A stretch of DNA of 64,000 bases from assembly GCA_020819635.1 (NCBI GenBank), contig GCA_020819635.1_4533.1; one strand, given 5' to 3'. Each line of letters begins with the position of its first letter. Within the stretch, counting starts at the first letter, position 1. Under the pieces are notes generated by a model. The model had not been told where the DNA came from and did no database searches. It saw only the letters and a list, made by a program, of their open reading frames with translations. The stretch is from Escherichia coli. Its GTDB lineage: Bacteria; Pseudomonadota; Gammaproteobacteria; Enterobacterales; Enterobacteriaceae. Shown here piece after piece: positions 10,040 through 55,989 of this stretch. The translations under genes were made by a program, and so were the position numbers.

Positions 10040-10047
10040 GGAGGGTT

Positions 10048-42706: not shown

Positions 42707-44250
42707 GACAATCTCCTCTCATCGTTAGCCATCTTTCATGGCAATCATCAATCACCAACATCATACGATCAATCTTAGGGAATTACAATCGAATTATCAT
42801 AGGGGATTCCTATCAATTATCCCATATATACCGATTATTTTTGACACCCCACTCTTGTATAAAAAGTAACCCAAAATATCTACGGGGAGAGATTATTTCG
42901 ACACACCCTGTTTCATGGCAATCGTGGCAAGAATATCTAATAGAATCAATATCATATGGCAATAATCATGGCGTATACGTAAGAAGTGCTTAACGCGAAT
43001 TTTCGGGCCGTCAGGTCCACGCAGCGACAATTCCCAAATATCATGAGAATGAGAATAATTATCATTCGTATTCAATGACTTATGCAAGGCTCATGCCAAC
43101 ATAGCGACAAGGTGGGCCACTTGATTATAAATCACACAAACACTTATTTATCAATGGTTTGGCAACTTCATCATATGACGGAACAATGTCAACCGATCCT
43201 GCTCATGACAAGCAGACTATTATTTATATGAGAATGATTATTATTTAAACGTTTATTAACATAAAAGCCAAAATAAATCAAGAATTTTCTGATTTTATTT
43301 ACGTTTAAGAGAACGTGCTCAACATATCGCTACGCGATAGTATTCGCCCCCAAAAGATTAGCCTTTATTTTCTTATATGTTTATACACTATGTGCACACT
43401 ATGCAACCTGTCGCTATTCGCTCATGTTGCTACGTGCAATTATTCATCTTGCTAATGATTTCATCTTGTAATTACCACAATGATTATTGTTATTGCGCTA
43501 ATGTTATGATCTTGGTAATTACATATAATGCTAATAATAAGCCAGCGCAATAAGTGTAAGCGTCATTACGCTTGCAATTATTGCAAGCTACGCAGTAACA
43601 AGAAATAACCGTCACCGATGGTTATGATTGTTGGGGTGTAGTTGGCTTATTATTAGCTCGCTATGTGTCCGGCATAGCGTGCTAATGATGACTCTATGAA
43701 TGATTCGTTTTGTAATGATTTCATTCAGGCACTATTATGGCAATAGTTATTATTTTAATGGTTTCGTTTGTTATTGTTCGTTAGTTGGTTGTTTTGTCGT
43801 GTTATCGTTATCCTGCTTAGTATTCATCATGGTTTGATTGTTTGTCGTTATCAATCATCTTGCTACTATTCCTTTGATTATGATTAGTTTGCTTATTGTT
43901 TTACGTTGTTTGTTGGTTAGTTGTTGCGAACTATTATCAACATTATAGTTATGCGCTTATATTGCATAGATAATCATGGATAGATGATAATGGTTATCAT
44001 TGCACTAGAAAGGAGGTAAAAGGGTGTTTTTGATGGTTTGTTGTTGGTTGTTGATCGATTTTAACCGCTCTAAATAGCTCTCTAACAGTTTGTTACCCTG
44101 GGAGGTATGGTTATTCGTTTAATGGTTGATTAGCTCGATACCGCGATTTATTCAGTTTTGTTCTGTGTCGGTTTTTCATAGGCGAAAGCTATCAACATTA
44201 TTCGGGCAAAAAGAAAGGGCGCTTGATGCGCCCCCTTATTTTGTTGTCGA
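42707..44250. other. non-coding AT-rich island with short palindromes and strand-skewed GT-rich tract
   Basis: no ORF of 60 aa or more over about 1.2 kb; palindromes TTGCAATTATTGCAA, CGCTATG...CATAGCG; three copies of the AGAAT(C/G)A..TCAT motif also found at 55.7 kb. Confidence 0.5.
44214..44245 (-). terminator. intrinsic terminator
   Basis: minus strand GGGCGC-atcaa-GCGCCC followed by TTTCTTTTT. Confidence 0.55.
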
Positions 44251-44670
44251 TTATAACGCTTCATAGATTGAGTAGATCCGGTTTGCCAGGTCATTACGAA
44301 AGCGGAATTTTTCATCACGTTTGATCATCAGATCCTTAAAACCGCATTCTTTCAAGGCTTCATTAACTTTATGGCGGCAAACGTTCATATTATCCTGCGC
44401 GTCACCAATAAACTTATTGCTGTGATGCATTGCTTTGATCTCTTCCTCTAATACCAGGGCAACTACACGGACCGGATCAAGCTGATATGCGGTAACATCC
44501 ATGCGGCATTGTAAACGGCTTTTAACATCGTTTACCGGATATACTGCAACCTCTTCCCCGTCAACGTTCACGATAACCAATTTACCATCGATTTCGAAGC
44601 CTTTGGCGGCGCTACCGTGACAAAAAGCGTTATCGAAGGAGTAAGCTGGATTATTTGATTTAATGTTCAT
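44251..44670 (-). CDS. hypothetical protein
   Basis: 139-aa ORF. Confidence 0.5.
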   Translation of the reverse strand: MNIKSNNPAYSFDNAFCHGSAAKGFEIDGKLVIVNVDGEEVAVYPVNDVKSRLQCRMDVTAYQLDPVRVVALVLEEEIKAMHHSNKFIGDAQDNMNVCRHKVNEALKECGFKDLMIKRDEKFRFRNDLANRIYSIYEAL

Positions 44671-44781
44671 GGTGTTGTCCTTTGTTTCGTTTCGTTGTTT
44701 GCTGCCAGTGAGTTAAATATAATATAACGCCGATCCCCTGTCAATAGGGGATAGCGCATTATTTACATTTCTTTACGTTAA

Positions 44782-44810
44782 AGGGCGCTTAGTGCGCCCC
44801 CTTGTATAAT
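44782..44810 (-). terminator. intrinsic terminator
   Basis: GGGCGC-actaa-GCGCCC hairpin with flanking T-run. Confidence 0.5.
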
Positions 44811-44811
44811 C

Positions 44812-45180
44812 TTACTTTGTGCGGTTGTGAACGTTATCGCGTTCAACCATCAGGGCAAGGCGGATCAGTTGATCAGTTGTATCGCGTAAATTGTCGGGCC
44901 ATGTTTTACTGTTCCAGCTATCCAGGTTTGATTGTATATAGGTTTCAATGGCTTGATCCATATTATCAAACAAGTTTTCCTCCAGGCTCTCGGCTGTTTC
45001 ACACTGGAAAGCATTAGCGACACTATTAATCAATAAGCAAGCCAGTAAATCAGCATTGCGCCAATTTTTACGGATAGTTTCATCTGTCAGATAACCGATC
45101 AGATTAACCTTTGCGCCAGTGGTAGACGTTGCGATCACTTCTTGCGCTTTTTCAACTGCTTTAATTGCTGATTTGCTCAT
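44812..45180 (-). CDS. hypothetical protein
   Basis: start set at MSKSAIK after AAGAGGAAAA RBS; ORF-table N-terminus translates the promoter cassette. Confidence 0.5.
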   Translation of the reverse strand: MSKSAIKAVEKAQEVIATSTTGAKVNLIGYLTDETIRKNWRNADLLACLLINSVANAFQCETAESLEENLFDNMDQAIETYIQSNLDSWNSKTWPDNLRDTTDQLIRLALMVERDNVHNRTK

Positions 45181-45197
45181 CTTCTTTTCCTCTTTGT

Positions 45198-45258
45198 GGG
45201 CTTGCTGTATTGCTCGCCCTACGTGATAAATAATAATGTAAGCGTGATCCGGTGTCAA
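45198..45258 (-). promoter_or_regulatory. promoter plus stem-loop cassette (PeSL-like), degenerate copy
   Basis: minus strand TTGACA, 17-nt spacer, TATTAT, then GGGCGAGC...GCAAGCCC. Confidence 0.5.
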
Positions 45259-45564
45259 TAGGTAGAATTGTAAAGATTTGATAGTTTGTTCCTTTGATGT
45301 TTTGTTGTTTGATAGGCGTTAGTTATCAATATATAGCGGGGTCGTCCGGTGATTATCTTCCCCTGTTTCCAGGTGCCGCCCGTTCAATAAGTATAACAAA
45401 AAACAGGACAAAAACAAGCCCTGTTTATTTATCTTAAAACCAGTTGCCAACCGTTTCCAATAGGTCACTGACTACCAGGACAACATTGATCAGCACATGT
45501 TCAACCATGAAGGGGATAAGCGCCAGCGTTGCTACTACGATCCCCATTGTGATGATTACCTTTC

Positions 45565-45855
45565 TCATTGTTGGCGGTTTACGTAAGCTTTACCGTTTAC
45601 GGTCATCGGCATGGCCTCAAGGTCTGGATCTTCCTTAAGGTCGCGTGAAAGCTCACCGCAGCGGATACCCTCGAATCCGTAGTACTCTGTTGTGCCGTCC
45701 TGGAAAGTTTTAGCGGCAAGGCATAGGCGATAATTAACACCGATCCGGTTTACCGCGTTGATATCGGTTAACGTGATGGATTCAGGCAACTCCTTAGCTA
45801 TTACAGGCGCGTTAATACCAACAACCAGGGCAACTACTGCGATCATCTTTTTCAT
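45565..45855 (-). CDS. secreted protein with signal peptide
   Basis: MKKMIAVVALVVGINAPVIA. Confidence 0.5.
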   Translation of the reverse strand: MKKMIAVVALVVGINAPVIAKELPESITLTDINAVNRIGVNYRLCLAAKTFQDGTTEYYGFEGIRCGELSRDLKEDPDLEAMPMTVNGKAYVNRQQ

Positions 45856-45885
45856 GCTTTCTAGCCTCTTCCTATTGCGTTTAAT

Positions 45886-45903
45886 GGGGCGTTACCGCCC
45901 CGC
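45886..45903 (-). promoter_or_regulatory. 5'-UTR stem-loop (hairpin-only copy)
   Basis: GGGGCG-ttac-CGCCCC between genes, no clear -35. Confidence 0.4.
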
Positions 45904-45910
45904 TTATGGT

Positions 45911-46147
45911 TTATTGATTGATGTTATAATGAAAGTTATTTTCTTCAATTGCTTTTAAAATAAAAGCTGTGATCGCTTTCGTGTCTACTTGTTCGAACGT
46001 ATCAGAATAGCACCAATAATGATCATCCCCTACTTTCGGCGGGTAAACCTGGACAAGGAGATCGCCACCTGGTTGATCTATAATCTCAACATGTAAGCCG
46101 GATGATTCAGCGGTTTTAACGGCGGTTAATACTGTTGCAACACTCAT
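45911..46147 (-). CDS. hypothetical protein
   Basis: 78-aa ORF. Confidence 0.45.
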   Translation of the reverse strand: MSVATVLTAVKTAESSGLHVEIIDQPGGDLLVQVYPPKVGDDHYWCYSDTFEQVDTKAITAFILKAIEENNFHYNINQ

Positions 46148-46166
46148 AATCTTTTCCTTTCTGATG

Positions 46167-46184
46167 TGGGGGCGTTGCCGCCCC
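46167..46184 (-). promoter_or_regulatory. 5'-UTR stem-loop (hairpin-only copy)
   Basis: GGGGCG-ttg-CCGCCCC. Confidence 0.4.
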
Positions 46185-46192
46185 TTTGTTGA

Positions 46193-46492
46193 TTAGATCG
46201 CTGTTTCCAGTAGTTCGGCTAACGTCTTACCGCCTGATAGTTGGTCTAACGTTTGCTGTTCCGGCAAGAAATTAGCTGATATTAATCCGACTTGATTCCC
46301 TTTGTGCCAATTAGCTTGACGGATGATTCCATCCTTTAAGGATTTTACCGCCATTGTGCAACCGTCGCCAAATGATTCATTTTTATGATCCATCACTTCA
46401 TAAGCGCCCAGCTTGCTGCTGTTAGGTACCATTAACGCGAATACATCACCAACAACCAGTTTTTCTACGGTAACAATAGCGATAGTTTCCAT
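46193..46492 (-). CDS. hypothetical protein
   Basis: 99-aa ORF. Confidence 0.5.
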   Translation of the reverse strand: METIAIVTVEKLVVGDVFALMVPNSSKLGAYEVMDHKNESFGDGCTMAVKSLKDGIIRQANWHKGNQVGLISANFLPEQQTLDQLSGGKTLAELLETAI

Positions 46493-46510
46493 TTTATTTT
46501 CCTCATTATC

Positions 46511-46567
46511 GGCGGCACCATTGCCGCCCTACGTGGTAAATATTATCACACTGGCGATCCGTGTCAA
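46511..46567 (-). promoter_or_regulatory. promoter plus stem-loop cassette (PeSL-like)
   Basis: minus strand TTGACA, 16-nt spacer, TAATAT, then GGCGGCA-ATGG-TGCCGCC. Confidence 0.6.
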
Positions 46568-46573
46568 TACTTT

Positions 46574-46960
46574 TTATTCAATATAAATCAAATTATCTTC
46601 ACCAATGTAAGCCGACACGTTCGGCATAAACTTAGCTGCATTGGTTAAGCGGTTGGCTGTGTTAGTGGTGTATATTTCAGGGCGATCCCAAAATCCTACG
46701 CCGTGACCGTTACGGGTAAAATGTAAATCATTCCCGATTTGGTTGGCTGTAGCGCCGTCGCTCATTGCCTCAGAGATAGCGGCAAGATTAGCATTAATAA
46801 AGGCTGTTACATCCTGGGCGATCCGTTGATGGGCTTGATCTGAAAAATCATAATCAGTCATGTCATCTATAAAATTACCTTTGTGATCCCTGGCTGATTC
46901 AGCAAAAATAAAGGCTTCTTTGTAGCCGTTGATGATTTCAATAATGATTTCTGTTTTCAT
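46574..46960 (-). CDS. hypothetical protein
   Basis: 128-aa ORF. Confidence 0.5.
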   Translation of the reverse strand: MKTEIIIEIINGYKEAFIFAESARDHKGNFIDDMTDYDFSDQAHQRIAQDVTAFINANLAAISEAMSDGATANQIGNDLHFTRNGHGVGFWDRPEIYTTNTANRLTNAAKFMPNVSAYIGEDNLIYIE

Positions 46961-47181
46961 GCTGTACGCTCGACAATAATAATAGTTTGCGGGATCTCGT
47001 TTTCTACTACTAACAAGGCTTTTTTCTGCGTAATAGATATTTTAACACGTTGTAACGTGGCGGTAAAGTCTTTCATCTCATTATGCGCGGATTTAGTGCA
47101 ATGCCATATTTCAGGTTTACCAATTTGCAAGCCGCGTAAAAATTCTGTTTTACCTGTCTTATTCGTGATCATTTGATTCAC
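46957..47181 (-). CDS. hypothetical protein
   Basis: 74-aa ORF. Confidence 0.4.
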   Translation of the reverse strand: MNQMITNKTGKTEFLRGLQIGKPEIWHCTKSAHNEMKDFTATLQRVKISITQKKALLVVENEIPQTIIIVERTA

Positions 47182-47307
47182 CTTAACCGATACCGTGGGA
47201 AGATAGGATCATGTTAGCCATAGTTGCAACCACTCCAACCGATAACGCCAGGCCCACTATTACAACCGTGAAAATTTTCTCTAACATGATTCTACCCTCA
47301 TTAATGG

Positions 47308-47350
47308 GCGTTGCCTTATTGCCCCGCCCTATTGACGGCGGGGAATACTC
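47308..47350 (-). promoter_or_regulatory. tandem GC-rich stem-loops (hairpin-only copy)
   Basis: GGGCG...CCGCCC and GGCGGGG...CCCCGCC; coordinates approximate. Confidence 0.35.
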
Positions 47351-47365
47351 CCCCCGCCTCATTAA

Positions 47366-47572
47366 TTATTCTTCATCGTCGCCGTTATAGTATTCAATGC
47401 CGTTTTCATCGGTTACAGTGATGTTAACGCCACCGATAGCAACACGATCACGGGCAAACGTCATAGCTTCATTTAAATCTTCAGACCAAAAAATATTGTG
47501 ACCTTTGCGCGATACATAAAACATAGTCGGGATCATGATTTGTTTCTCTTCTGTTGTGAGCGGCTGGACCAT
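47366..47572 (-). CDS. hypothetical protein
   Basis: 68-aa ORF; start uncertain (ATG lies inside the cassette hairpin). Confidence 0.4.
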   Translation of the reverse strand: MVQPLTTEEKQIMIPTMFYVSRKGHNIFWSEDLNEAMTFARDRVAIGGVNITVTDENGIEYYNGDDEE

Positions 47573-47622
47573 TCCGCCGCTCTATGTAATAAACTTTACT
47601 ACGTTGTTTGCCTACTGTCAAA
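47559..47622 (-). promoter_or_regulatory. promoter plus stem-loop cassette (PeSL-like)
   Basis: TTGACA, 17-nt spacer, TAAAGT, then GAGCGGC...GCCGCTC. Confidence 0.5.
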
Positions 47623-47907
47623 TTATTTTTTAATGTTTTGCCCTACAAAATTGATCACTTCCTTAAGCTGTCTCTCTGTCATGATCGTACCTGGTAATTC
47701 TTCTTTTATTTCTTCCGGTAAATAGATATTACCGCGCCAGGTTAACAAACAACCGTTTTGATCTTCGCAGATAGAATAAGAAAACATCCATTCGCAATCA
47801 TTTTCAAGCTCCCAAAAACACAAAAAGTCTTCTTTCCCTAAGTTTTCAACGGTTAAACATAATCCGCGACGTGCTGCATAATTAGTTAGGCTTTTTGTGA
47901 TTTTCAT
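47623..47907 (-). CDS. hypothetical protein
   Basis: start set at MKITKSL; ORF-table extension translates the hairpin. Confidence 0.45.
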   Translation of the reverse strand: MKITKSLTNYAARRGLCLTVENLGKEDFLCFWELENDCEWMFSYSICEDQNGCLLTWRGNIYLPEEIKEELPGTIMTERQLKEVINFVGQNIKK

Positions 47908-47928
47908 GATTTTTCTCTCTTCTTGTGA

Positions 47929-47985
47929 GCGGCACCATTGCCGCCCTACAAGATACATATTACCAGACTACGCGGACTTGTCAAA
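47929..47985 (-). promoter_or_regulatory. promoter plus stem-loop cassette (PeSL-like)
   Basis: TTGACA, 16-nt spacer, TAATAT, then GCGGCA-ATGG-TGCCGC. Confidence 0.6.
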
Positions 47986-48105
47986 CTATTTTTTCTTTTT
48001 CTTTGCTTCCAACCGTCTAAGGTTACGGCTTGACTTATTGCGCAAGGCGCTTAGATCATCATACCCTTTCCAGGCTTGCATGTCTTTCGGATTCATGTTA
48101 TCCCC

Positions 48106-48384
48106 TTAACGGTTGTAAATATTGTGGATAGTGATAAAGGCGCTACGGTCATAAGCTGCCAAATCAGGATTGATCCAAGTGTTATCTAACAGTGTTTCAA
48201 GGATAATCGAATCATCATGAATAGCATCATAAAAATCGGGGCTAACAATAGTGTCAATATCATTTTCCGTTAATTCTGCATTCAGCTTGCAAACCGCTTG
48301 CAAATCTGCTTCACGCTTCCAATCTTGCAGATTAGTAGTCAGCACTTGTTCGATTTCTTCGGTGGATAATTTGGTGATGGTCAT
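48106..48384 (-). CDS. hypothetical protein
   Basis: 92-aa ORF. Confidence 0.5.
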   Translation of the reverse strand: MTITKLSTEEIEQVLTTNLQDWKREADLQAVCKLNAELTENDIDTIVSPDFYDAIHDDSIILETLLDNTWINPDLAAYDRSAFITIHNIYNR

Positions 48385-48403
48385 GATTCTATCTCTCTGT
48401 TAG

Positions 48404-48460
48404 GCGGGGCGCTTGTCGCCCCTATGTGATACATCTTATCAGGTTGATTCAGCTTGTCAA
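48404..48460 (-). promoter_or_regulatory. promoter plus stem-loop cassette (PeSL-like)
   Basis: TTGACA, 16-nt spacer, TAAGAT, then GGGGCG-acaag-CGCCCC. Confidence 0.6.
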
Positions 48461-48461
48461 G

Positions 48462-48662
48462 TTATTTGTTAGCCGGATTATATGCCAGGATCGCGCCACT
48501 TGCTTTCACGCTTTCCGTTTCATAGCTGCGCAAGTTGTCTTCTGTAAGATTGAGCGCGATCACTTCCTCGATCTCAACGTCAGCGGCAAGGGCGATCTCT
48601 TTGATAATGTCTGTTGTTTTCATAGTATGTACCTTATAAGATGATTGATAAGATAGTGACAA
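48462..48662 (-). CDS. hypothetical protein
   Basis: 66-aa ORF. Confidence 0.45.
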   Translation of the reverse strand: MSLSYQSSYKVHTMKTTDIIKEIALAADVEIEEVIALNLTEDNLRSYETESVKASGAILAYNPANK

Positions 48663-48777
48663 CGAAAGCGATTATACTGATGGCAAATGTCATCTTTTTA
48701 CCTTCGGATACTGCCGGATTTTCTACCGTGTATTCTACTGTGTACTTGCTCATCGTGTAATCCTCTCGTTTGCTTTG

Positions 48778-48833
48778 GGAACTATTCCCGCCGCCTTATG
48801 AATTAAATATACACTATCTCAAAATTATTGCAA
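48778..48833 (-). promoter_or_regulatory. promoter plus stem-loop cassette (PeSL-like)
   Basis: TTGCAA, 16-nt spacer, TATATT, then GGGAA-tag-TTCCC. Confidence 0.5.
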
Positions 48834-48848
48834 GCCTTTTCTAAATTT

Positions 48849-49133
48849 TTATGCAGTAAACAAACCATCATTTACAACGGCGGCGATGATCTCCCGTGCC
48901 ATTGATTCAGGGAAAGGGGCGCTATAGTCCTGGCTTGTCTCGTCGGTATCAGTGATCCAATGATAAGCTAACGAGTAAAAGCCTTTACTAACTGTTTTCA
49001 GTGAGATGATGATCACTCGGTCAAGCTTATTGGTGAATGTTGCCGTTAATGTGTTACCCTCCTGCGTCATGTTGGACAAGTAAGCGGGATCATTAATCAG
49101 GGAAAACATTAGCACGGTGTTAGCTTTACTCAT
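48849..49133 (-). CDS. hypothetical protein
   Basis: start set at MSKANTV. Confidence 0.45.
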   Translation of the reverse strand: MSKANTVLMFSLINDPAYLSNMTQEGNTLTATFTNKLDRVIIISLKTVSKGFYSLAYHWITDTDETSQDYSAPFPESMAREIIAAVVNDGLFTA

Positions 49134-49149
49134 GATTGCATCCTCAAAT

Positions 49150-49168
49150 GGGCGCGGCACCATTGCCG
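49150..49168 (-). promoter_or_regulatory. 5'-UTR stem-loop with weak upstream promoter
   Basis: GGCGGCA-ATGG-TGCCGCGCC; -35 not canonical. Confidence 0.4.
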
Positions 49169-49204
49169 CCCTACACGATAACTATAACACAATGTAAAAC
49201 AGGA

Positions 49205-49411
49205 TCAACCTTTATTTTTCCACGGTGTCAGTTTGTTAATCATTGGTGATAAATAACGTTTACCAACGTAAAACAGCACGCCAACTGATGCAACGGCGGC
49301 GATCTCATGCATAGCCGACGGGAAACGGGTATCATAATAAGATCCAATAATAGCAATAGCGGCAACGGCTGCAACGTCGATAATGATTTTTTCTTGTTTT
49401 GCGGTGATCAT
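49205..49411 (-). CDS. small membrane protein
   Basis: 68 aa, hydrophobic AAVAAIAIIGSY segment. Confidence 0.45.
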   Translation of the reverse strand: MITAKQEKIIIDVAAVAAIAIIGSYYDTRFPSAMHEIAAVASVGVLFYVGKRYLSPMINKLTPWKNKG

Positions 49412-49433
49412 AATATTTACCTTTTTGTATGGT

Positions 49434-49490
49434 GGGGAACTATTCCCCGCCTGATGTAATACAGTTTAACAGGTCCGGTTATGGTGTCAA
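49434..49490 (-). promoter_or_regulatory. promoter plus stem-loop cassette (PeSL-like)
   Basis: TTGACA, 16-nt spacer, TAAACT, then GGGGAA-tag-TTCCCC. Confidence 0.6.
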
Positions 49491-49496
49491 CCACTT

Positions 49497-49682
49497 TTAA
49501 AGATATTTTATACTGATAACGTTTTCCGGTTTAACCTTGTTGTGATGTGCATCAACATAGATCAAACCATCGTCAGAAAAGCCCAGGATCACGCCCTGCG
49601 CAATAAAACCGTATTCGTCACGGTAACGCACGGCTATTTTTAATGTTGCGTTGTAGGCTGTTTTAAGCTCGTTTAAAGTCAT
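49497..49682 (-). CDS. hypothetical protein
   Basis: 61-aa ORF. Confidence 0.4.
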   Translation of the reverse strand: MTLNELKTAYNATLKIAVRYRDEYGFIAQGVILGFSDDGLIYVDAHHNKVKPENVISIKYL

Positions 49683-49702
49683 TTTTGTTTATCCTCTACA
49701 TG

Positions 49703-49735
49703 TAAAAAGAAAGGGCGCTAGATGCGCCCTTGTTA
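49703..49735 (-). terminator. intrinsic terminator
   Basis: GGGCGC-atcta-GCGCCC hairpin with flanking T-run. Confidence 0.5.
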
Positions 49736-49902
49736 TGTTAATCCTCTAAATCCATCCAATTATATTTGTCACTCTTCCCGCGCTTTGTTTTATTGCGCTT
49801 GTCGCCTTTGCGGATCACTTCCTCATTCCAGGCCTTGCGGATCTTGGAAGATTGAATTTTTTCTGCGCGATTAGATGTATTCATTTTGTTTCCTCTTTAT
49901 AT

Positions 49903-49957
49903 GAGCGGCACCATTGCCGCTATATTATTAATTTAAACTGTTTTGTAAAATTGTCAA
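49903..49957 (-). promoter_or_regulatory. promoter plus stem-loop cassette (PeSL-like), compressed
   Basis: TTGACA, 16-nt spacer, TAAATT, hairpin GCGGCA-ATGG-TGCCGC. Confidence 0.5.
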
Positions 49958-49963
49958 GGTTTA

Positions 49964-50317
49964 TCATTCATAAGAGCAAGCAAGGATCACGCCTGCAATA
50001 TAAAGCCAATAATTTTCCCTTTCTCGTTGGATTTTATCATCGCTGCTATTCTCTTTAATGTATCCCCAGGATGTTAACAAGCGATCCACTTCCCAATATT
50101 CGAAAGCGATATTAATGTCTGATGGCAAACCTTGTAACCATGATGCAAGTGCTTTAACAATACTATAATTAAAACGTGATTGGTTATCAGGGTACCAGTA
50201 TTCGGAATTAAAACGGCGCATCAATTCCGCGATCTTCTCTTTTTCGGTTGTAATACCATAATCATTAAAATCGATAGCGGCAAGGATGTACTCTTTAATT
50301 GCATTTTGTGCTTTCAT
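49964..50317 (-). CDS. hypothetical protein
   Basis: 117-aa ORF. Confidence 0.5.
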   Translation of the reverse strand: MKAQNAIKEYILAAIDFNDYGITTEKEKIAELMRRFNSEYWYPDNQSRFNYSIVKALASWLQGLPSDINIAFEYWEVDRLLTSWGYIKENSSDDKIQRERENYWLYIAGVILACSYE

Positions 50318-50336
50318 GGTCTTTCTCTCTTTTTTA

Positions 50337-50393
50337 GCGGGAACTCTTCCCGCCCTATGTGTAACAGTTTACTGAAAATTAAATCTGTGTCAA
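50337..50393 (-). promoter_or_regulatory. promoter plus stem-loop cassette (PeSL-like)
   Basis: TTGACA, 16-nt spacer, TAAACT, then GCGGGAA-gag-TTCCCGC. Confidence 0.6.
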
Positions 50394-50396
50394 GTT

Positions 50397-50618
50397 TTAT
50401 TTTGTTACTACCATTTGGTACCCTGTTTCAATGTTGCTAAACACTGTTATCCCGTCCTGGCGTTCACTCATTAGCATACAAGGCGCTAACATCCTTTCTA
50501 CTGCCTTGCACTCGTTGTAAACGGCGGTTATATCTCCTGCTGCCTTGTCTTCTGTAGTAAATGTCTCATTTACGTAAACTTGACCAGCGACAACGGCGAC
50601 AATAGCAAAAGTGATCAT
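50397..50618 (-). CDS. hypothetical protein
   Basis: 73-aa ORF. Confidence 0.45.
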   Translation of the reverse strand: MITFAIVAVVAGQVYVNETFTTEDKAAGDITAVYNECKAVERMLAPCMLMSERQDGITVFSNIETGYQMVVTK

Positions 50619-50691
50619 GATGTTTTTCTCTTTATGTGTTTCGATTAGTTGATATTACAGCAATTCACAGATTAGTTTTTAGCAATTCGTG

Positions 50692-50910
50692 CTATTTACT
50701 CATAACAGTATCGAAAACAAATTTTTCTTTGTTGTCAAAGCTCACGTATCCGATTCGACCACGCAAGCCGCGAGTAGTGCCGTATTCGTAACCGTCAAGA
50801 CCTTTAACCTTCCAATCCACGCCCATTAAAACCGCATTATATTTCTGACCAACTACAAACGCGCCACCAGTTGATTCAATGCAAACAACTTTAATTTTAC
50901 GGATTGCCAT
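50692..50910 (-). CDS. hypothetical protein
   Basis: 72-aa ORF. Confidence 0.45.
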   Translation of the reverse strand: MAIRKIKVVCIESTGGAFVVGQKYNAVLMGVDWKVKGLDGYEYGTTRGLRGRIGYVSFDNKEKFVFDTVMSK

Positions 50911-50950
50911 TTTCTTTCTCTCTTTCTGGTGATTGGTTTCTCTTCTCTAT

Positions 50951-50985
50951 AGCGCCCATTATAAGGCGCTATAACGAAAAGTCAA
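50951..50985 (-). promoter_or_regulatory. sigma70-like promoter with -10 inside a palindrome
   Basis: TTGACT, 16-nt spacer, TATAAT; the -10 sits in the loop of TATAGCGCC...GGCGCTATA. Confidence 0.55.
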
Positions 50986-51178
50986 CGATTATTTTTAAGG
51001 CTTAAAGTACCTAACTTGTCAGCATGACGCAGACCAGGGAAGATCCATTTTCCTGATTCATCTTTTACAGGGGCTTTAAGCGTAGCGCCTAGGTTGGCGG
51101 CGTTAACTTTACGTGCAACGTTGCGAGCGGCTTCACGGGTAGCGAAAGTGATCATGGTGTTTTCCTCTTCTCTTTGTT

Positions 51179-51241
51179 AGGCGGTGGACCATTCCGCCGC
51201 CTTGATGTAATACAGTTTACTTTATTTTTGCAGTATTGCAA
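51179..51241 (-). promoter_or_regulatory. promoter plus stem-loop cassette (PeSL-like)
   Basis: TTGCAA, 16-nt spacer, TAAACT, then GGCGGCGG...CCACCGCC. Confidence 0.55.
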
Positions 51242-51247
51242 GCGGTT

Positions 51248-51460
51248 TTATGAAATAATCGTCAAAGTAAAATTGTAATCACCTGATTGATATAATACTT
51301 TATCACCGAACGTTCCAACACGTTTAACATTGCAATATATACCCATAACACTTTTTACATCTTTGATATTCTTCACGCCTGTAATGTCTTTATTGAAATA
51401 CTCGTCATCTGAAAATAAAACTTGACTTGCATTTTTTAACAGTGTGCGGATATTAGCCAT
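51248..51460 (-). CDS. hypothetical protein
   Basis: 70-aa ORF. Confidence 0.45.
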   Translation of the reverse strand: MANIRTLLKNASQVLFSDDEYFNKDITGVKNIKDVKSVMGIYCNVKRVGTFGDKVLYQSGDYNFTLTIIS

Positions 51461-51483
51461 CGTAATAATCTCTCTTCTGTTGT

Positions 51484-51541
51484 GAGCGGCACCATTGCCG
51501 CCCTATGTAATACAGTTTACTCTTTTTCTTTCCGGTGTCAA
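51484..51541 (-). promoter_or_regulatory. promoter plus stem-loop cassette (PeSL-like)
   Basis: TTGACA, 16-nt spacer, TAAACT, then GCGGCA-ATGG-TGCCGC. Confidence 0.6.
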
Positions 51542-51550
51542 CAATCTTTT

Positions 51551-51778
51551 TCAGATCAATTCATCCAGGCATAACAGGCGATCAACGTTGAGATCGGTTA
51601 GGCTGATGGTTGGCACCTGGTAGGATTCGATGTACTCGACGCTTGCATATTCCCCAAAATTAGCAATAGCCCACTTATTCAAGATCTCACATACATCATT
51701 AATCTTTTTGTTTGTTACAACTGCAATAACCTGGGAAGTGCCAACGGTGCCGGATACGCGAACAATATTGATAGCCAT
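51551..51778 (-). CDS. hypothetical protein
   Basis: 75-aa ORF. Confidence 0.45.
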   Translation of the reverse strand: MAINIVRVSGTVGTSQVIAVVTNKKINDVCEILNKWAIANFGEYASVEYIESYQVPTISLTDLNVDRLLCLDELI

Positions 51779-51799
51779 AATCTTTAATCTCTCTGTTGT

Positions 51800-51859
51800 T
51801 GGCGGGAAACCACTTCCCGCCCTATGTGATACATCTTACACTAATTTTAAACGTTGTCA
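51800..51859 (-). promoter_or_regulatory. promoter plus stem-loop cassette (PeSL-like)
   Basis: TTGACA, 16-nt spacer, TAAGAT, then GCGGGAA-gtggt-TTCCCGC; near-identical to the copy at 54746. Confidence 0.6.
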
Positions 51860-51869
51860 ACTGTTTTTA

Positions 51870-52109
51870 TTACATTCCAACCATTGCAGCACGGATCGCC
51901 GTAGTGCTATACTTGAATCCGTCCGGCGTTGTAGTAGTACCGTTGGCTTTTAATCTGCGGTACATACATTCCGCAGCAATATCTTTAGTTCTACTTTGTG
52001 CGATGCAACTTTGAGCAAGCCGATACAATGACTCACCGTTATTAATCCATAAGGAAACATTCCAATGAGTTTTGTTTTTGTGACCTAAGAACATTTTAGA
52101 TTTAGCCAT
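51870..52109 (-). CDS. hypothetical protein
   Basis: 79-aa ORF. Confidence 0.45.
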   Translation of the reverse strand: MAKSKMFLGHKNKTHWNVSLWINNGESLYRLAQSCIAQSRTKDIAAECMYRRLKANGTTTTPDGFKYSTTAIRAAMVGM

Positions 52110-52132
52110 GATTTTTCTCTCTTTTTCAGTGA

Positions 52133-52192
52133 GGCGGGAAGTGTTCCCGCTCTCTATGTAATACAGTTTACTCTTTTTATTGGTGCTGTCAA
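52133..52192 (-). promoter_or_regulatory. promoter plus stem-loop cassette (PeSL-like)
   Basis: TTGACA, 16-nt spacer, TAAACT, then GCGGGAA-cac-TTCCCGC. Confidence 0.6.
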
Positions 52193-52198
52193 TGCTTT

Positions 52199-52564
52199 TT
52201 ATAAATCTTTTTTACGTTTAACATCGCTCGCATGACTGTATACAGTGATCCCATTGTCACGGCAAAAACGGGAAAGATACGCGCCGCGTGAAAACTCTTT
52301 ACCTTCCATATTAATAACCTTGCTAAACTCTTCCAGGGCGACGGTATCAAAATGATCACCATAGCCATATTGAAACGGAACGTTAACCACCTCGATCAGT
52401 TTACCGCCGATCTCAACGTCAACCATTAAAGAAAAATATGTGTTACCGTAGGACTGTTGAAACCAGCGACGGGCGCTAATATGCACCGCCTCAATGCTGG
52501 ATAATTCAATTTTAGCCGTGTTAGCCAGGGTAGCATAAGCGGAAACATTGATATTAATAGCCAT
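52199..52564 (-). CDS. hypothetical protein
   Basis: 121-aa ORF. Confidence 0.5.
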   Translation of the reverse strand: MAININVSAYATLANTAKIELSSIEAVHISARRWFQQSYGNTYFSLMVDVEIGGKLIEVVNVPFQYGYGDHFDTVALEEFSKVINMEGKEFSRGAYLSRFCRDNGITVYSHASDVKRKKDL

Positions 52565-52590
52565 GGTGTCACTCTCTCTTTTTGGTTAGT

Positions 52591-52642
52591 GGGAAGTATT
52601 CCCGATAAAAGTTATTATGCTTATACTATCACTCATTGTCAA
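52591..52642 (-). promoter_or_regulatory. promoter plus stem-loop cassette (PeSL-like)
   Basis: TTGACA then CATAAT/TAATAA -10 region, hairpin GGGAA-tac-TTCCC. Confidence 0.5.
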
Positions 52643-52870
52643 TAGTATAAGACTAAAACTTTTAACGATAATCGTTATAGGCTTTATTGACCTGGCGAAT
52701 GTAACATTCGAAAGCAAGATCAATGTATTCGTATTCACGCACATAATCACCATAGGTCACTACATACATTTTTAAAGTTTCCTCATAAGCCAGGAGGATC
52801 GAATCTAAACCTATAATCTCAGTTTTTGCAATGATAGCCATGATGTTAACCTTTTATTGTTGGCGGCACC

Positions 52871-52927
52871 ATTGCCGCCCTACGTGATAAACTATACCAG
52901 AAGTTTAAACAGTGTCAACCGTTTTTA
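52871..52927 (-). promoter_or_regulatory. promoter plus stem-loop cassette (PeSL-like)
   Basis: TTGACA, 16-nt spacer, TATAGT, then GGCGGCA-ATGG-TGCCGCC. Confidence 0.6.
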
Positions 52928-53287
52928 TTCGTAAATTTTACCGCTTTCGGCCCATACCATAACGCGGCGCATACTATCCCAAGTGTTTTGATCCAGGTTT
53001 AAGCCGTGCAACTCTTCGGTACTTCCCAGACCAGGTACCGCCTTGTTATAAGTTGCATATAAGCGCCCTTGATACTCATACGCTAGGGTGAGATCCGTTT
53101 GAATCATCTTTTTAAGCATAGCATTAAGCATCGTGTTAGCGGCATATTGATCACGTTTTAGCGGTAACATGTCAATAAGGGCGCGATAAGCTGAAACATG
53201 AATATCAACCGTTTCACGTGGTAAATTTTTCATATCGTCGCGGAAAGATACCAGATTAAACATGATAGTATTGATTTGCTTGCTCAT
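52925..53287 (-). CDS. hypothetical protein
   Basis: 120-aa ORF. Confidence 0.5.
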   Translation of the reverse strand: MSKQINTIMFNLVSFRDDMKNLPRETVDIHVSAYRALIDMLPLKRDQYAANTMLNAMLKKMIQTDLTLAYEYQGRLYATYNKAVPGLGSTEELHGLNLDQNTWDSMRRVMVWAESGKIYE

Positions 53288-53308
53288 TGTGTTACCCTTT
53301 TTTGTTTT

Positions 53309-53369
53309 GGCGGGGAAGTATTCCGCCGCCCTATGTGATACATCTTATCAGATTAAAAAACGTTGTCAA
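53309..53369 (-). promoter_or_regulatory. promoter plus stem-loop cassette (PeSL-like)
   Basis: TTGACA, 16-nt spacer, TAAGAT, then GGCGGCGGAA-tac-TTCCCCGCC. Confidence 0.6.
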
Positions 53370-53501
53370 GAATATTTTTTAGAAAATAATAGCCGCTACT
53401 ACAACCCAAAATGGAACGGCGAAAATGATAGCGTTAATCGTTCCAACCGTCAAGCTATTTTCTTTATTAATCATTGTAAACCTCTTGCATAATTTCACTA
53501 T

Positions 53502-53560
53502 GAGCGGCACCATTGCCGCCCTACGTGGTAAATATTATGCCAGTGGCGGCGATATGTCAA
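53502..53560 (-). promoter_or_regulatory. promoter plus stem-loop cassette (PeSL-like)
   Basis: TTGACA, 17-nt spacer, TAATAT, then GGCGGCA-ATGG-TGCCGC. Confidence 0.6.
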
Positions 53561-54123
53561 AGACTATTTTCAAAGTTTTCTAGTGCGATCCTTTTTTCTT
53601 CCTCTGTCGGCTGATAATCAGGAAAAGCATCAACACACAACAACGGCGGGATCTCTTCGTACTCTTCCTCTTCCGTTGTCTCCTCGTCTTCCTCCTGGGC
53701 TATGGCTGCAATTTTGGCTAATTTTCTTTCAGCTTGAATCAATTTACCATCAAGTACGTTTTTTGCCATGTTGTAAGCGGTCCAGGTGATGCGCTTACTT
53801 TCCAATGCTTCATCAAGCGCCGCTATCTTGCTGGGGTATTCATCCAGGACACGAAAAGCCGGATCAATTTTGTACAAAGGATTATCTTTCGCGCCGTCGC
53901 TCGCATCTTCCGCACTGGATAAATCAGCGTTACCATTTGCCAGCCAACCAGGGCGCACATAACGCGCTTTTACGTTGCCGTTACTACGTGCTAATCTGTT
54001 ACCTATTTGCTCACCGCTATATCCCGTGGATTCATCGATAAGATGATCGGGAATGATGCGCGGATCATCTGCTTCATGTTTTACCCAAGACTGGATCACA
54101 TATTCGCGGCCCATATTAACCAC
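53557..54123 (-). CDS. hypothetical protein with acidic C-terminal region
   Basis: 188-aa ORF; start uncertain. Confidence 0.5.
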   Translation of the reverse strand: MVNMGREYVIQSWVKHEADDPRIIPDHLIDESTGYSGEQIGNRLARSNGNVKARYVRPGWLANGNADLSSAEDASDGAKDNPLYKIDPAFRVLDEYPSKIAALDEALESKRITWTAYNMAKNVLDGKLIQAERKLAKIAAIAQEEDEETTEEEEYEEIPPLLCVDAFPDYQPTEEEKRIALENFENSL

Positions 54124-54373
54124 CTTTTTTCAACAATTGGCATACTTTAAAAAGACTTGCTGAATCCTTGCAAGGGTAGAAAGATGTACGATAATCACGT
54201 ACGCCAACCTTGCGGATCTCGATGTTTTCGCATGTTGTTTGATCAAAGATATTTATTTCATCACGCCCCCTTATATAAACATAGTGGGGATGTATTAACG
54301 CATATTTTGCTAATCTGTAAAAAGCGTTATCTTTGAACGCGATCACGTGACCTTTTAATTTGATGTAAAACAT
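54116..54373 (-). CDS. hypothetical protein
   Basis: 85-aa ORF. Confidence 0.45.
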   Translation of the reverse strand: MFYIKLKGHVIAFKDNAFYRLAKYALIHPHYVYIRGRDEINIFDQTTCENIEIRKVGVRDYRTSFYPCKDSASLFKVCQLLKKGG

Positions 54374-54390
54374 TCTACCACCTTACAAAT

Positions 54391-54446
54391 AGCGGGAACT
54401 ATTCCCGCTTTATGTAACATATTAACAAATTATTCGTTAATGTCAA
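54391..54446 (-). promoter_or_regulatory. promoter plus stem-loop cassette (PeSL-like)
   Basis: TTGACA, 16-nt spacer, TAATAT, then GCGGGAA-tag-TTCCCGC. Confidence 0.6.
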
Positions 54447-54449
54447 GCC

Positions 54450-54722
54450 TTAAAGCAAAAACGCTACATCTTGCGCTTTTAGTGTAGTATCAACCATTTT
54501 TGGGCTTTTATAATCAACAAAGCGCGCGGTTTTTTCAATAGCGAAACCGAGATAATCTTGTTTATTGAATTTACATTCTTTCTTAAATGTTTCCCGCGCC
54601 ACGGTGATCGCTGCGTCCAGGGATAAACGCCCGTCAATGTTGATGTTAGCGAAAGATCCGCCACCGCTCATAGGTTTACCAGTTGTGCCAGCTACGATCA
54701 TTGTTGCGCTATATGATGCCAT
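54450..54722 (-). CDS. hypothetical protein
   Basis: 90-aa ORF. Confidence 0.45.
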   Translation of the reverse strand: MASYSATMIVAGTTGKPMSGGGSFANINIDGRLSLDAAITVARETFKKECKFNKQDYLGFAIEKTARFVDYKSPKMVDTTLKAQDVAFLL

Positions 54723-54745
54723 GATGATAATCTCTCTTCTGTTAC

Positions 54746-54806
54746 GAGCGGGAAACCACTTCCCGCCCTATGTGATACATCTTATCAGGTTGTTGTTTGT
54801 TGTCAA
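54746..54806 (-). promoter_or_regulatory. promoter plus stem-loop cassette (PeSL-like)
   Basis: TTGACA, 16-nt spacer, TAAGAT, then GCGGGAA-gtggt-TTCCCGC. Confidence 0.6.
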
Positions 54807-54812
54807 TAGTTT

Positions 54813-55012
54813 TTATTCTATTCCTGCGATTTGATTAACGCGCTTGCATTTTGTAGCGTGCTGGTCTTCTGTAATGACTCCCATTTCTAACAGGGAATCA
54901 ATGAAAGATAAAACCGTTTCATGATCATCCTGGGGGTGACTGAACTCAGTAAAACCGTTTACCACTACGTTGATTTGTCCAGCTTTCGCCACAATGTGCA
55001 ATGTTGCCATGA
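54813..55012 (-). CDS. hypothetical protein
   Basis: start set at MATLHIVAK; ORF-table extension (LVGRQWCRS) translates the hairpin. Confidence 0.45.
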
Positions 55013-55028
55013 TCTTAACTCCAAATAG

Positions 55029-55088
55029 TGAGCGGCACCATTGCCGCCCTACAAGATGAATACTACGCCGCCGCCTGGTTAACGTCAA
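55029..55088 (-). promoter_or_regulatory. promoter plus stem-loop cassette (PeSL-like), first of array
   Basis: TTGACG, 17-nt spacer, TAGTAT, then GGCGGCA-ATGG-TGCCGC. Confidence 0.55.
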
Positions 55089-55196
55089 CCATTTTTCAAT
55101 CTTTTTTATTTTCTTTTTGCTTGCTATATATAAAGAAAAGGGCTATTATCTTTCTACCGCGCCAACCAGGGCGCACAACAAAGAAAGGGCGATATC

Positions 55197-55463
55197 ATGA
55201 CAAATACTACATTACACCTTATGCACTCATTGGGCTGGCAAGGCGGCACGGTGCACCAGGTAGCAAGCGCAACGGGCTTAAAGGTTGAAACCGTTCTCAA
55301 CCTGGGCGATCATAAGGTGGAAGAGATAGATCATTTTGATACGTTCGCAAATGGTTATCTATGGGCTTGCAGTGGCGGCGGGGAAAGCAAGATACCACCA
55401 GGGGCGCGGGGCGATATGTATTTTTGGTTAGGTGTCCTATCCTGGCAAGAAAACAAAAAATAA
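55197..55463 (+). CDS. hypothetical protein (isolated plus-strand ORF)
   Basis: 88-aa ORF with AAGGG RBS; GC-richer than surroundings; reality uncertain. Confidence 0.3.
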   Translation: MTNTTLHLMHSLGWQGGTVHQVASATGLKVETVLNLGDHKVEEIDHFDTFANGYLWACSGGGESKIPPGARGDMYFWLGVLSWQENKK

Positions 55464-55465
55464 TC

Positions 55466-55494
55466 TTGACAAGCCCAGGGATCGGGCTTATACT
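55466..55494 (+). promoter_or_regulatory. strong sigma70-like promoter
   Basis: TTGACA, 17-nt spacer (itself an AGCCC...GGGCT inverted repeat), TATACT. Confidence 0.5.
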
Positions 55495-55499
55495 GTTTT

Positions 55500-55700
55500 A
55501 CATACAGAAGAGGAAGCGCCACCCCACGGCGTAAAGGCGGGGCTAACATACCAGGGGGCACTGGTTGGAAGGTTGATCGCCGGTAGGCTGGGTGCTATAT
55601 ATTTGTAAAGAAATGTAAAGATAAAATAATCGCTTGCTTTCCTGGCTGGATCTGTTATTCTTATTACATGGCGAGGGGACACGGGAGCGCGAGACAAACA
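55500..55700 (+). ncRNA. candidate small non-coding RNA, GC-rich and structured
   Basis: directly downstream of a consensus promoter; no plausible ORF; locally GC-rich in an AT-rich genome; only Pro/Arg-rich antisense ORFs. Confidence 0.2.
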
Positions 55701-55722
55701 CCGCCCCTGCGCGTCATTCTCT

Positions 55723-55838
55723 AAATGAGAATGATTGTCATTTACCTTATTAAATAAGAATCAATCTCATTTATAAACTTAAATGCGAATCATTATCATT
55801 TGCATTTCCATATGAGAACTCTTCTCATTTTCACCTGC
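55723..55838. repeat. four tandem 29-bp repeats with palindromic core (operator or iteron-like)
   Basis: copies start at 55723, 55752, 55781 and 55810 (exact 29-bp period); core aAATGaGAATnaTtnTCATTT with inverted-repeat symmetry. Confidence 0.6.
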
Positions 55839-55851
55839 ATAAAAATTTTTG

Positions 55852-55910
55852 TAAACTTTAAATTTTGCTTTTGTACTTTCATTTTTGTAAAAGCAAAAAA
55901 ACTTTAAATA
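55852..55910. repeat. AT-rich direct repeat, copy A (about 58 bp)
   Basis: TAAACTTTAAATTTTGCTTTTGTACTTTCATTTTTGTAAA...ACTTTAAATA; about 85% identical to copy B. Confidence 0.5.
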
Positions 55911-55989
55911 CTGTGGGCGCGCAAAATTTTTAAAATTTTCCTTGACTTTTGAGTTTTGTTTTGTATCTAACATTTTAAGATAATTTTCC

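Follow-up and report, generated by a model that had tools for sequence, protein, structure and literature searches.

The stretch of DNA analyzed here (64,000 nt of Escherichia coli assembly GCA_020819635.1, contig GCA_020819635.1_4533.1; hereafter the window) carries on its minus strand, between 44.2 and 55.1 kb, a block of 32 small genes (31–185 aa) among which one promoter-plus-hairpin unit, hereafter the cassette, recurs some 20 times. We favor, at a probability of roughly 60%, the reading that this array is a hyperplastic accessory-gene block of tandem mobile expression modules, each of ~90 bp plus one small gene, comparable to the promoter early stem-loop (PeSL) cassettes of T4-like phages. 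In their part in genome evolution the cassettes are PeSL-like, but they are built differently and are found in other phage subfamilies. The region matches Escherichia phage vB_EcoM_10C3_SA_NWU (Stephanstirmvirinae, Phapecoctavirus; phAPEC8-like) at 100% identity, the 64-kb window being the reverse complement of that record, spanning its ends, and the full genome measuring 152 kb. All 32 genes are annotated as “hypothetical” in the identical GenBank record, and the ten largest array proteins, searched against PHROGs and Pfam, matched only unknown-function families in the former and no family in the latter. The GC content of the array is 40–43%, that of its flanks 36–39%.

On the minus strand from 44.7 to 55.1 kb we identified 23 near-consensus sigma-70 promoters, each in front of a small gene, and a GC-rich hairpin follows 21 of them (units 50985 and 44744 are without it; units are named by their higher coordinate, the first T of the −35 box). 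The promoters take the form TTGACA (or one to two mismatches), a 16–17 nt spacer and TAnnnT, in many cases with TG just ahead of it (extended −10), and the window hairpins begin on average 10.4 nt (standard deviation 1.5) past the −10 box. In most units the preceding gene's stop codon is found 1–9 nt ahead of the −35 box, upstream of which the consensus is A-rich, and the ATG follows 17–27 nt past the hairpin, behind a purine-rich leader (~20 nt) with a Shine–Dalgarno (SD) sequence, so that stop codon, promoter, hairpin and short leader make the whole intergenic region one compact unit of ~90 bp. A repeat search recovered this unit as direct-repeat families of 6–10 copies. Exact matches to TTGACA-N16/17-TAnnnT numbered 17 on the sense strand of the array, where dinucleotide shuffles gave an expectation of 0.15 ± 0.39, none on its antisense strand, and eight when both strands of the 53 kb outside the array are counted. 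Likewise, a perfect GC-rich hairpin just after a promoter-like site was found at 14 of 22 sites in the array and at 4 of 192 elsewhere in the 152-kb genome (Fisher p = 3 × 10−13), which places 14 of the 18 strict promoter-plus-hairpin matches inside this 11-kb block. Free energies of the window hairpins range from −5.5 to −19.6 kcal/mol (z mostly −3 to −6), and an Rfam scan of 43000–57000 up to E = 1 returned no family match. These counts bear out the minus-strand array of promoters and stem-loops that an earlier note on this DNA had described; its statement that a unit precedes almost every small gene was right as to the repeated units, but about two thirds of the 32 annotated genes have a cassette of their own. 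The sequence and conservation of the promoters make it very probable that host RNA polymerase would initiate at each module, and we infer, solely from their host type, that the transcripts would be early. Two more promoter-plus-5′-hairpin units lie outside the array: one at window 4076–4137 (plus strand; TTGACT-16-TATAAT, hairpin TGGGAGGA-GGTGAG-TCCTCCCA) and one outside the window (OR062526.1 ~18150–18211, minus strand), a clear family member (TTGACA-16-TAAGAT...GCGGGGAA-TAG-TTCCCCGC) ahead of a gene for a TerC-like membrane protein.

A 101-nt cassette query retrieved 140 phage records, belonging to Phapecoctavirus, Justusliebigvirus (phi92-like) and a few Vequintavirus (FV3, slur12), and had no sequence homology to T4-like PeSL elements at the blastn level. 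The window phage is a Phapecoctavirus, neither T4-like nor RB49-type, and the connection to RB49-type T4-like phages drawn in the earlier note does not extend to lineage. PeSL cassettes have been described in the T4-like phages RB49/phi1, PST/T4 and nt-1/KVP40 (Arbiol et al. 2010, PMC2839356; Comeau et al. 2014, PMC4122927). They share with the cassettes described here a sigma-70-type promoter, an AT-rich stretch with the upstream gene’s stop codon, a stem-loop of G-tract, loop and C-tract, and, closing the unit, an SD sequence with the start codon. In both, units of ~100 bp are repeated between ORFans in a hyperplastic region, and where close relatives differ by indels or replacements, the breakpoints fall in the units, with chimeric units at the junctions. 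For PeSL units, encapsidated mini-circles that arise by exchange between adjacent copies are also part of the description. The resemblance that had been noted thus stands for promoter, A-rich lead-in, stem-loop, SD sequence, ORFan context and indels, but not for lineage or for the position of the stem-loop: the hosts of these elements are T4-like myoviruses there and Stephanstirmvirinae and Vequintavirinae here, and our stem-loops lie past the predicted transcription start, 9–11 nt from the −10 box, whereas those of RB49/phi1 lie mostly between or over the promoter boxes and those of PST and nt-1 just upstream of the promoter (PMC2839356; PMC4122927). Within the window, the RB49 geometry is found only at unit 50985 and at a plus-strand promoter at 55466. 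In the searchable literature (which leaves subscription papers outside) we found no account of such cassettes in Phapecoctavirus, Stephanstirmvirinae, phi92-like or rV5-like phages; the promoter table of the rV5 paper ends 7 nt past the −10 box.

The hairpins were compared across 73 unique cassettes from eight phages (the window and the homologous blocks of seven others). The 5′ end of the stem lies 9–11 nt past the −10 box in 61 of these and the loop measures 3–5 nt in 70, with a G-rich 5′ arm and a C-rich 3′ arm that together form 25 distinct arm pairs (e.g., GGCGGCA/TGCCGCC, GCGGGAA/TTCCCGC, GGGGCG/CGCCCC, GGGGCAA/TTGCCCC and GGGCC/GGCCC). Whole-cassette MAFFT alignments left the loops ungapped and, since the 3′ arms were out of register in them, we counted arm pairs in place of using a covariance model, taking the 7 + 7 nt of arm that flank the RNAfold loop and shuffling the 3′ letters among cassettes 500 times. 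Standard pairs occupied 82% of cells, compared with 62.8 ± 2.4% after shuffling (0/500 as high) and 44–59% when the 3′ partner was slid; the percentage is biased upward, since the arms were found with RNAfold and the copies are related, and the shuffle and slide controls answer the arm-extraction bias only in part. Pairs changing on both sides numbered 7/7, against 4.1 in the shuffles (2/500 as high), and the covariation score was 0.446, against 0.155. Divergence at the same positions in five relatives (tuntematon, nieznany, PsgM04F, SKA64 and ECO340P2) was 0.018 per site for the −35 box, 0.041 for stems, 0.049 for the −10 box, 0.083 for loops, 0.101 for the spacer and 0.117 for third codon positions (Fisher p = 0.001 for stems vs. 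loops, 4 × 10−10 for stems vs. spacer, 10−11 for −35 vs. spacer, and 2 × 10−4 for the lower divergence of the −10 box relative to spacer and third codon positions), as would be expected of working promoters plus a selected helix. We therefore regard it as very likely that the hairpin folds and is selected. The repeats might instead be the mere residue of serial duplication of a single promoter–gene module, with a functionless hairpin; the copies are clearly homologous, and 10 of the 21 window hairpins have the same core GCGGCAATGGTGCCGC. However, stems, −35 and −10 boxes evolve two to five times slower than spacer, loops and third codon positions, and differing stems stay paired at the same position across three genera, so that this explanation, already disfavored, is extremely improbable.

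At positions 7–8 after the −10 box a pyrimidine–purine (YR) step is present in 62 of the 73 cassettes, and the predicted start is thus the purine 8 nt after the −10 box. The predicted transcript would read R-U-A and then enter the stem, with 2–3 unpaired nt and a stem beginning at about +3 to +5, and any plausible sigma-70 start would put the hairpin within the cassette’s own transcript. In the proposed module, the previous stop codon would be followed by an A-rich stretch, a sigma-70 promoter, the YR start, 2–3 unpaired nt, a GC-rich hairpin of 7–10 bp, ~20 nt of purine-rich SD leader and the start codon. Host RNA polymerase would start at every such module; the hairpin, which we infer to act as RNA, would be transcribed first and fold as a 5′-terminal stem-loop. 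This would then shield the triphosphate 5′ end from RppH and from 5′-end-dependent RNase E, and would also insulate the unstructured ribosome-binding leader from upstream context, with short monocistronic phage mRNAs being stabilized. Finally, recombination between modules would delete, insert and swap promoter–gene modules, also across phage subfamilies. The part given here to the hairpin as 5′-terminal mRNA stabilizer and insulator is the likeliest one for it, but its probability is somewhat less than even. RppH and RNase E need a single-stranded 5′ end, which explains stabilizing 5′ structure (PMC3997798 section 6), and 5′ secondary structure blocks access of both enzymes and stabilizes mRNA (PMC3997798, citing Emory 1992, Bouvet and Belasco 1992). 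As in the 5′ stabilizers of ompA and papA, a stable hairpin stands a few nt from the predicted 5′ end and precedes a leader that lacks structure and holds the ribosome-binding site; unlike these, the cassettes form a repeated, recombining phage family of ~20 copies, and their 5′ end is a predicted one.

The PeSL stem-loop, by comparison, has been described as terminating transcription that arrives from upstream and was tested in that role (PMC2839356 section 14; PMC4122927 Fig. 3 legend), and the cassettes could be classical PeSL elements whose stem-loop attenuates or terminates transcription from the upstream module, its position in the 5′ untranslated region being incidental. The PeSL211/210 stem-loop of RB49/phi1 lowered lacZ about as much as rrnB T1 did (PMC2839356 section 14), the RB49/phi1 stem-loops have the same succession of G-tract, loop and C-tract, and the promoter-less hairpins at gene junctions (Table 1) fit a role in read-through transcripts. 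We nevertheless consider termination unlikely: no cassette hairpin is followed by more than four T in the next 10 nt, which agrees with the absence of a U-tract claimed in the earlier note and makes a terminator role doubtful, and a terminator scan flagged zero cassette hairpins on the sense strand. Within the array, the same scan picked out three sites that do resemble terminators and belong to another repeated family (44236, 45426 and 49731). A terminator past the start of the next promoter would also sit in that promoter’s own transcript, and a fixed distance of 9–11 nt to the −10 box is unneeded for termination; in T4-like phages the position varies. The tight link of the hairpin to the −10 box, over three genera and many stems, would fit a 5′-end role better than an upstream terminator.

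Alternatively, the hairpin or palindrome may be a protein site that controls all the promoters, either as a DNA operator (+3 to +25, for early shut-off) or as an RNA site that modifies the polymerase, like nut/boxB or put. A position at the start is ideal for an operator and is promoter-proximal, as in nut and put; one stem, GGCGGCA/TGCCGC, occurs in 25 of the 73 unique cassettes; and the flanking YRTAG-GGG is conserved across cassettes. Against this, the half-sites of the 25 arm pairs differ (GGCGGCA, GCGGGAA, GGGGCG, GGGGCAA, GGGCC), the loops vary (ATGG, TAG, CAC, GTGGT, ACAA), which argues against sequence-specific recognition, and the ten largest proteins include no candidate regulator (PHROGs, Pfam). 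Lambda nut (boxB) and HK022 put are likewise RNA hairpins soon after an early phage promoter, but they occur once or twice per genome, with conserved loops or shapes, and serve antitermination, whereas here there are ~20 copies with variable loops and almost no downstream terminators to overcome. Such a protein site is, on balance, quite unlikely. Other candidates were set aside on more general grounds: an RNase III site is unlikely, as stems of 7–10 bp are too short, and so is an N4-type hairpin promoter, as the hairpin follows a complete sigma-70 promoter and we know of no virion RNA polymerase here. Antisense terminators are excluded, there being no T-run after the hairpin on the other strand.

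Evidence for mobility comes from comparing the window with the same five relatives, which revealed 29 events (insertions, deletions or replacements) and, for these, 32 distinct endpoints. Cassettes account for 20% of the sequence but contain 17 of the endpoints (binomial p = 4 × 10−5), and another four coincide with a promoter-less hairpin, terminator or leader. In nieznany, the deletions 46579–47929 and 51227–51471 each leave one surviving cassette, which aligns to the cassettes on either side of the deletion over 67 bp in the first case and 59 bp in the second. The survivor at sense position 7968 of the nieznany block begins as 47984 and, past a crossover in the hairpin common to both, continues as 46567, and the one at 5058 joins the −35 box of 51541 to the hairpin of 51241; crossover points include both the hairpin and the −10/discriminator. 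Extra genes are present at cassette 46567 in PsgM04F and SKA64 and at cassette 45258 in tuntematon and ECO340P2, bracketed in both cases by duplicated cassette sequence. The comparison of gene content between cassette boundaries that had been proposed earlier came out in favor of modular exchange. Modules share 50–75 bp of near-identical sequence and are thus substrates for homologous recombination, which, judging from the comparative structure of the junctions, probably operates between them. As further observations, two array genes, with starts at 50618 and 51155, are 90% identical over leader and initial codons (MITFA...; 50603–50632 and 51140–51169), which suggests recombination that extends into the 5′ ends of genes, and a deletion in SKA64 and ECO340P2 (52568–52834) joins two genes at a shared ATGGCTAT.

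Exchange also appears to reach across subfamilies. Between FV3 (Vequintavirinae) and alia (Stephanstirmvirinae), a module is shared at 90.4% nt identity from the −35 box of one cassette to the −35 box of the next, and the shared segment holds an FV3 open reading frame (ORF) annotated as without rV5 counterpart. FV3 modules match this window at 87% and 81% nt identity, with FV3 block segments 6008–6289, 6627–7015 and 7039–7631 aligning to alia and to window 45330–47332. For comparison, nrdA (window 4836–7076) is ~78% identical to Justusliebigvirus and ~66% to Vequintavirus, the latter over 28% of its length, and modules that are 81–90% alike next to an nrdA at ~66% suggest recent exchange of accessory modules between Vequintavirinae and Stephanstirmvirinae. 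It is conceivable that the hairpin is itself a single-stranded-DNA recombination signal, like REP/RAYT, IS200/IS605 ends or integron attC, by which the modules are actively mobilized. REP elements have a conserved GTAG beside the stem, which RAYT cuts, and REP and attC have been linked to mRNA stability or cassette exchange. Like REP/BIME and attC, the cassette hairpins are short, GC-rich, imperfect palindromes repeated at gene junctions; (A/G)TAG adjoins the 5′ arm in most cassettes, much as in the GTAG-plus-palindrome layout of REP, and the module boundaries between subfamilies fall at cassettes. They are, however, about half the length of REP and fused to promoters, TAG is absent in the more divergent cassettes of alia and FV3, and junctions that share 59–67 bp with crossovers at several places are the signature of homologous recombination. 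We also know of no dedicated recombinase for the cassettes, and of no HUH/Y1 enzyme or integrase in these phages, whose proteome was left unscanned. We thus judge a DNA signal of this kind extremely improbable, and see only a slender chance for an active exchange system in which (A/G)TAG plus hairpin would be processed as single-stranded DNA by a host or an unrecognized phage enzyme; were it real, promoter–gene modules would hop between unrelated co-infecting myoviruses (Stephanstirmvirinae and Vequintavirinae).

Several points weigh against the reading of the cassettes as mobile modules with a protective 5′ hairpin. Among the close orthologues of the five relatives no double compensatory substitution was seen: “broken” pairs are mostly terminal pairs or swaps of whole hairpins at one position (e.g., cassettes 54806 and 55088 in ECO340P2), so that covariation lies between cassette types and not stepwise within orthologues, and the stem covariation reported in the earlier note stands for the former only. 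The copies are paralogous repeats, and their fixed geometry is hence partly inherited instead of independently selected. Mismatches in the arms of the 73 cassettes comprise 5 G·T and 9 A·C, which shows no sense-strand bias of the kind that would mark the sense RNA, as opposed to DNA or the other strand, as the selected form, and would also be compatible with a DNA signal. Four promoter-less intergenic hairpins mean that a 5′-terminal role cannot cover all hairpins, and the transcription starts, the RNA folding and any gain in half-life are predictions for this phage group. Finally, selection would favor intergenic endpoints anyway, for which reason the anatomy of the junctions is more telling than the endpoint count.

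The cassettes also mislead gene calling, as had been noticed before. The peptide MYLVGRQWCRS... is an ORF-caller artefact, namely the translated hairpin of cassette 47984, and the GenBank coding sequences (CDS) NWUPM10C3_260 and _265 (starts 49163 and 47572) begin at an AUG in the hairpin loop AAUGGU, so that the annotated proteins gain MVPRPFEDAI and MVQPLTTEEKQI, respectively. The true starts are likely 49133 and 47536, where an ATG stands behind a purine-rich leader.

Taken as proposed, these modules extend the idea of mobile promoter/stem-loop cassettes from T4-like phages to two further subfamilies of large myoviruses of E. coli, in wide use in phage therapy collections, and their different build, with the hairpin within the transcript, points to mRNA protection rather than termination. 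They would account for the places at which phages otherwise 95% identical differ in their genes, provide evidence for accessory-gene modules moving between phage subfamilies, and, with ~20 natural variants of promoter plus 5′ hairpin, offer a concrete testable set. In practical terms, wrong start codons in deposited annotations are flagged, and compact modules, putatively of strong expression, become available for engineering.

Table 1 Coordinates of the array, its cassettes and associated sites in the window
Feature	Coordinates	Strand	Evidence or remark
Whole array, 32 small genes, 23 promoter units, 21 with 5′ hairpin	44214..55103	-	Promoter and fold scans, annotation, GC
Cassette TTGACG-17-TAGTAT, hairpin GGGCGGCA-ATGG-TGCCGCTC	55030..55088	-	
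Cassette TTGACA-16-TAAGAT, hairpin GGGCGGGAA-GTGGT-TTCCCGCTC	54746..54806	-	
Cassette TTGACA-16-TAATAT, hairpin AGCGGGAA-TAG-TTCCCGCT	54391..54446	-	
Cassette TTGACA-17-TAATAT, hairpin GGGCGGCA-ATGG-TGCCGCTC	53502..53560	-	
Cassette TTGACA-16-TAAGAT, hairpin GGCGG(C)GGAA-TAC-TTCCCCGCC	53309..53369	-	
Cassette TTGACA-16-TATAGT, hairpin GGCGGCA-ATGG-TGCCGCC	52862..52918	-	
Divergent cassette TTGACA-17-CATAAT, short weak hairpin GGGAA-TAC-TTCCC, -5.5 kcal/mol	52591..52642	-	
Cassette TTGACA-16-TAAACT, hairpin GAG(A)GCGGGAA-CAC-TTCCCGCCTC	52131..52192	-	
Cassette TTGACA-16-TAAGAT, hairpin GGCGGGAA-GTGGT-TTCCCGCC	51801..51860	-	
Cassette TTGACA-16-TAAACT, hairpin GGGCGGCA-ATGG-TGCCGCTC; recombined with 51241 in nieznany	51484..51541	-	
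Cassette TTGCAA-16-TAAACT, hairpin AGGCGG(C)GGA-ATGG-TCC(A)CCGCCT	51179..51241	-	
Promoter TTGACT-16-TATAAT, no 5′ hairpin; palindrome ATAGCGCC/GGCGCTAT over -10, RB49-type geometry	50949..50985	-	
Cassette TTGACA-16-TAAACT, hairpin GGCGGGAA-GAG-TTCCCGCT	50336..50393	-	
Cassette TTGACA-16-TAAATT, hairpin AGCGGCA-ATGG-TGCCGCT	49904..49957	-	
Intrinsic-terminator-like site AAGGGCGC-ATCTA-GCGCCCTT, then TCTTTTT (repeated family)	49711..49731	-	Terminator scan, repeats
Cassette TTGACA-16-TAAACT, hairpin GG(C)GGGGAA-TAG-TTCCCC(A)CC	49431..49490	-	
Cassette TTGATC-16-TATAGT, hairpin GCGGCA-ATGG-TGCCGC; loop AUG is GenBank CDS start	49152..49208	-	
Cassette TTGCAA-16-TATATT, degraded hairpin GGGAA-TAG-TTCCC	48777..48833	-	
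Cassette TTGACA-16-TAAGAT, hairpin GGGGCG-ACAAG-CGCCCC	48406..48460	-	
Cassette TTGACA-16-TAATAT, hairpin GGGCGGCA-ATGG-TGCCGCTC with CTTGT/ACAAG extension; recombined with 46567 in nieznany	47927..47984	-	
Cassette TTGACA-17-TAAAGT, hairpin GAGCGGCGGA-ATGG-TCC(A)GCCGCTC; loop AUG is annotated CDS start	47558..47621	-	
Two promoter-less hairpins (GGCGGGGGGAGTATTCCCCGCC; GGGCG...CGCCC)	47306..47358	-	Gene between them in tuntematon, ECO340P2
Cassette TTGACA-16-TAATAT, hairpin GGCGGCA-ATGG-TGCCGCC; extra-gene site in PsgM04F, SKA64	46511..46567	-	
Promoter-less intergenic hairpin GGGGCG-GCAA-CGCCCC, then Shine–Dalgarno	46169..46184	-	
Promoter-less intergenic hairpin GGGGCG-GTAA-CGCCCC	45886..45901	-	
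Terminator-like site AAACAGGGC...GTCCTGTTT, then TTTGTT; recurrent insertion point in three relatives	45401..45426	-	
Cassette TTGACA-17-TATTAT, imperfect hairpin GGGC..GC-AATACA-GC..GCCC; extra-gene site in tuntematon, ECO340P2	45199..45258	-	
Promoter TTGACA-17-TATATT, no 5′ hairpin; terminator-like hairpin ahead at ~44783-44801	44716..44744	-	
Terminator-like site closing array, same family as 49711..49731	44214..44236	-	Terminator scan, repeats

Separate from the cassette hairpins, a terminator-like repeat family of the form AAGGGCGC-5 nt-GCGCCCTTTCTTTTT occurs on the minus strand at 44214–44236, 49711–49731 and ~44783–44801. The gene behind promoter 50985 (50692–50910) is absent in PsgM04F, SKA64 and ECO340P2. 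The plus-strand promoter with RB49-type PeSL geometry (55466–55494; TTGACA-17-TATACT) carries the hairpin AAGCCC-AGGGATC-GGGCTT between its −35 and −10 boxes and directly follows the stop codon of a plus-strand gene (55197–55463).

Immediately upstream of the array lies an AT-rich non-coding stretch of ~0.8 kb (55400–56270), which may be an origin or regulatory region. It contains direct repeats AATTTTnnTAAACTTTAAATTTTG at 55844, 55934 and 55982, a 72-nt unit present twice, and an inverted repeat TAAATGAGAATGATTGTCATTTA at 55722–55773, and its motif ATGAGAATGATT is found again at 43227, in a non-coding stretch of ~0.9 kb at the array's opposite end. Elsewhere in the window, class Ia ribonucleotide reductase genes are present, class III being annotated elsewhere in the genome, and the annotation of the identical record gives the phage a complete dTDP-rhamnose pathway (rmlA-D-like; window ~8000–12500, plus strand).

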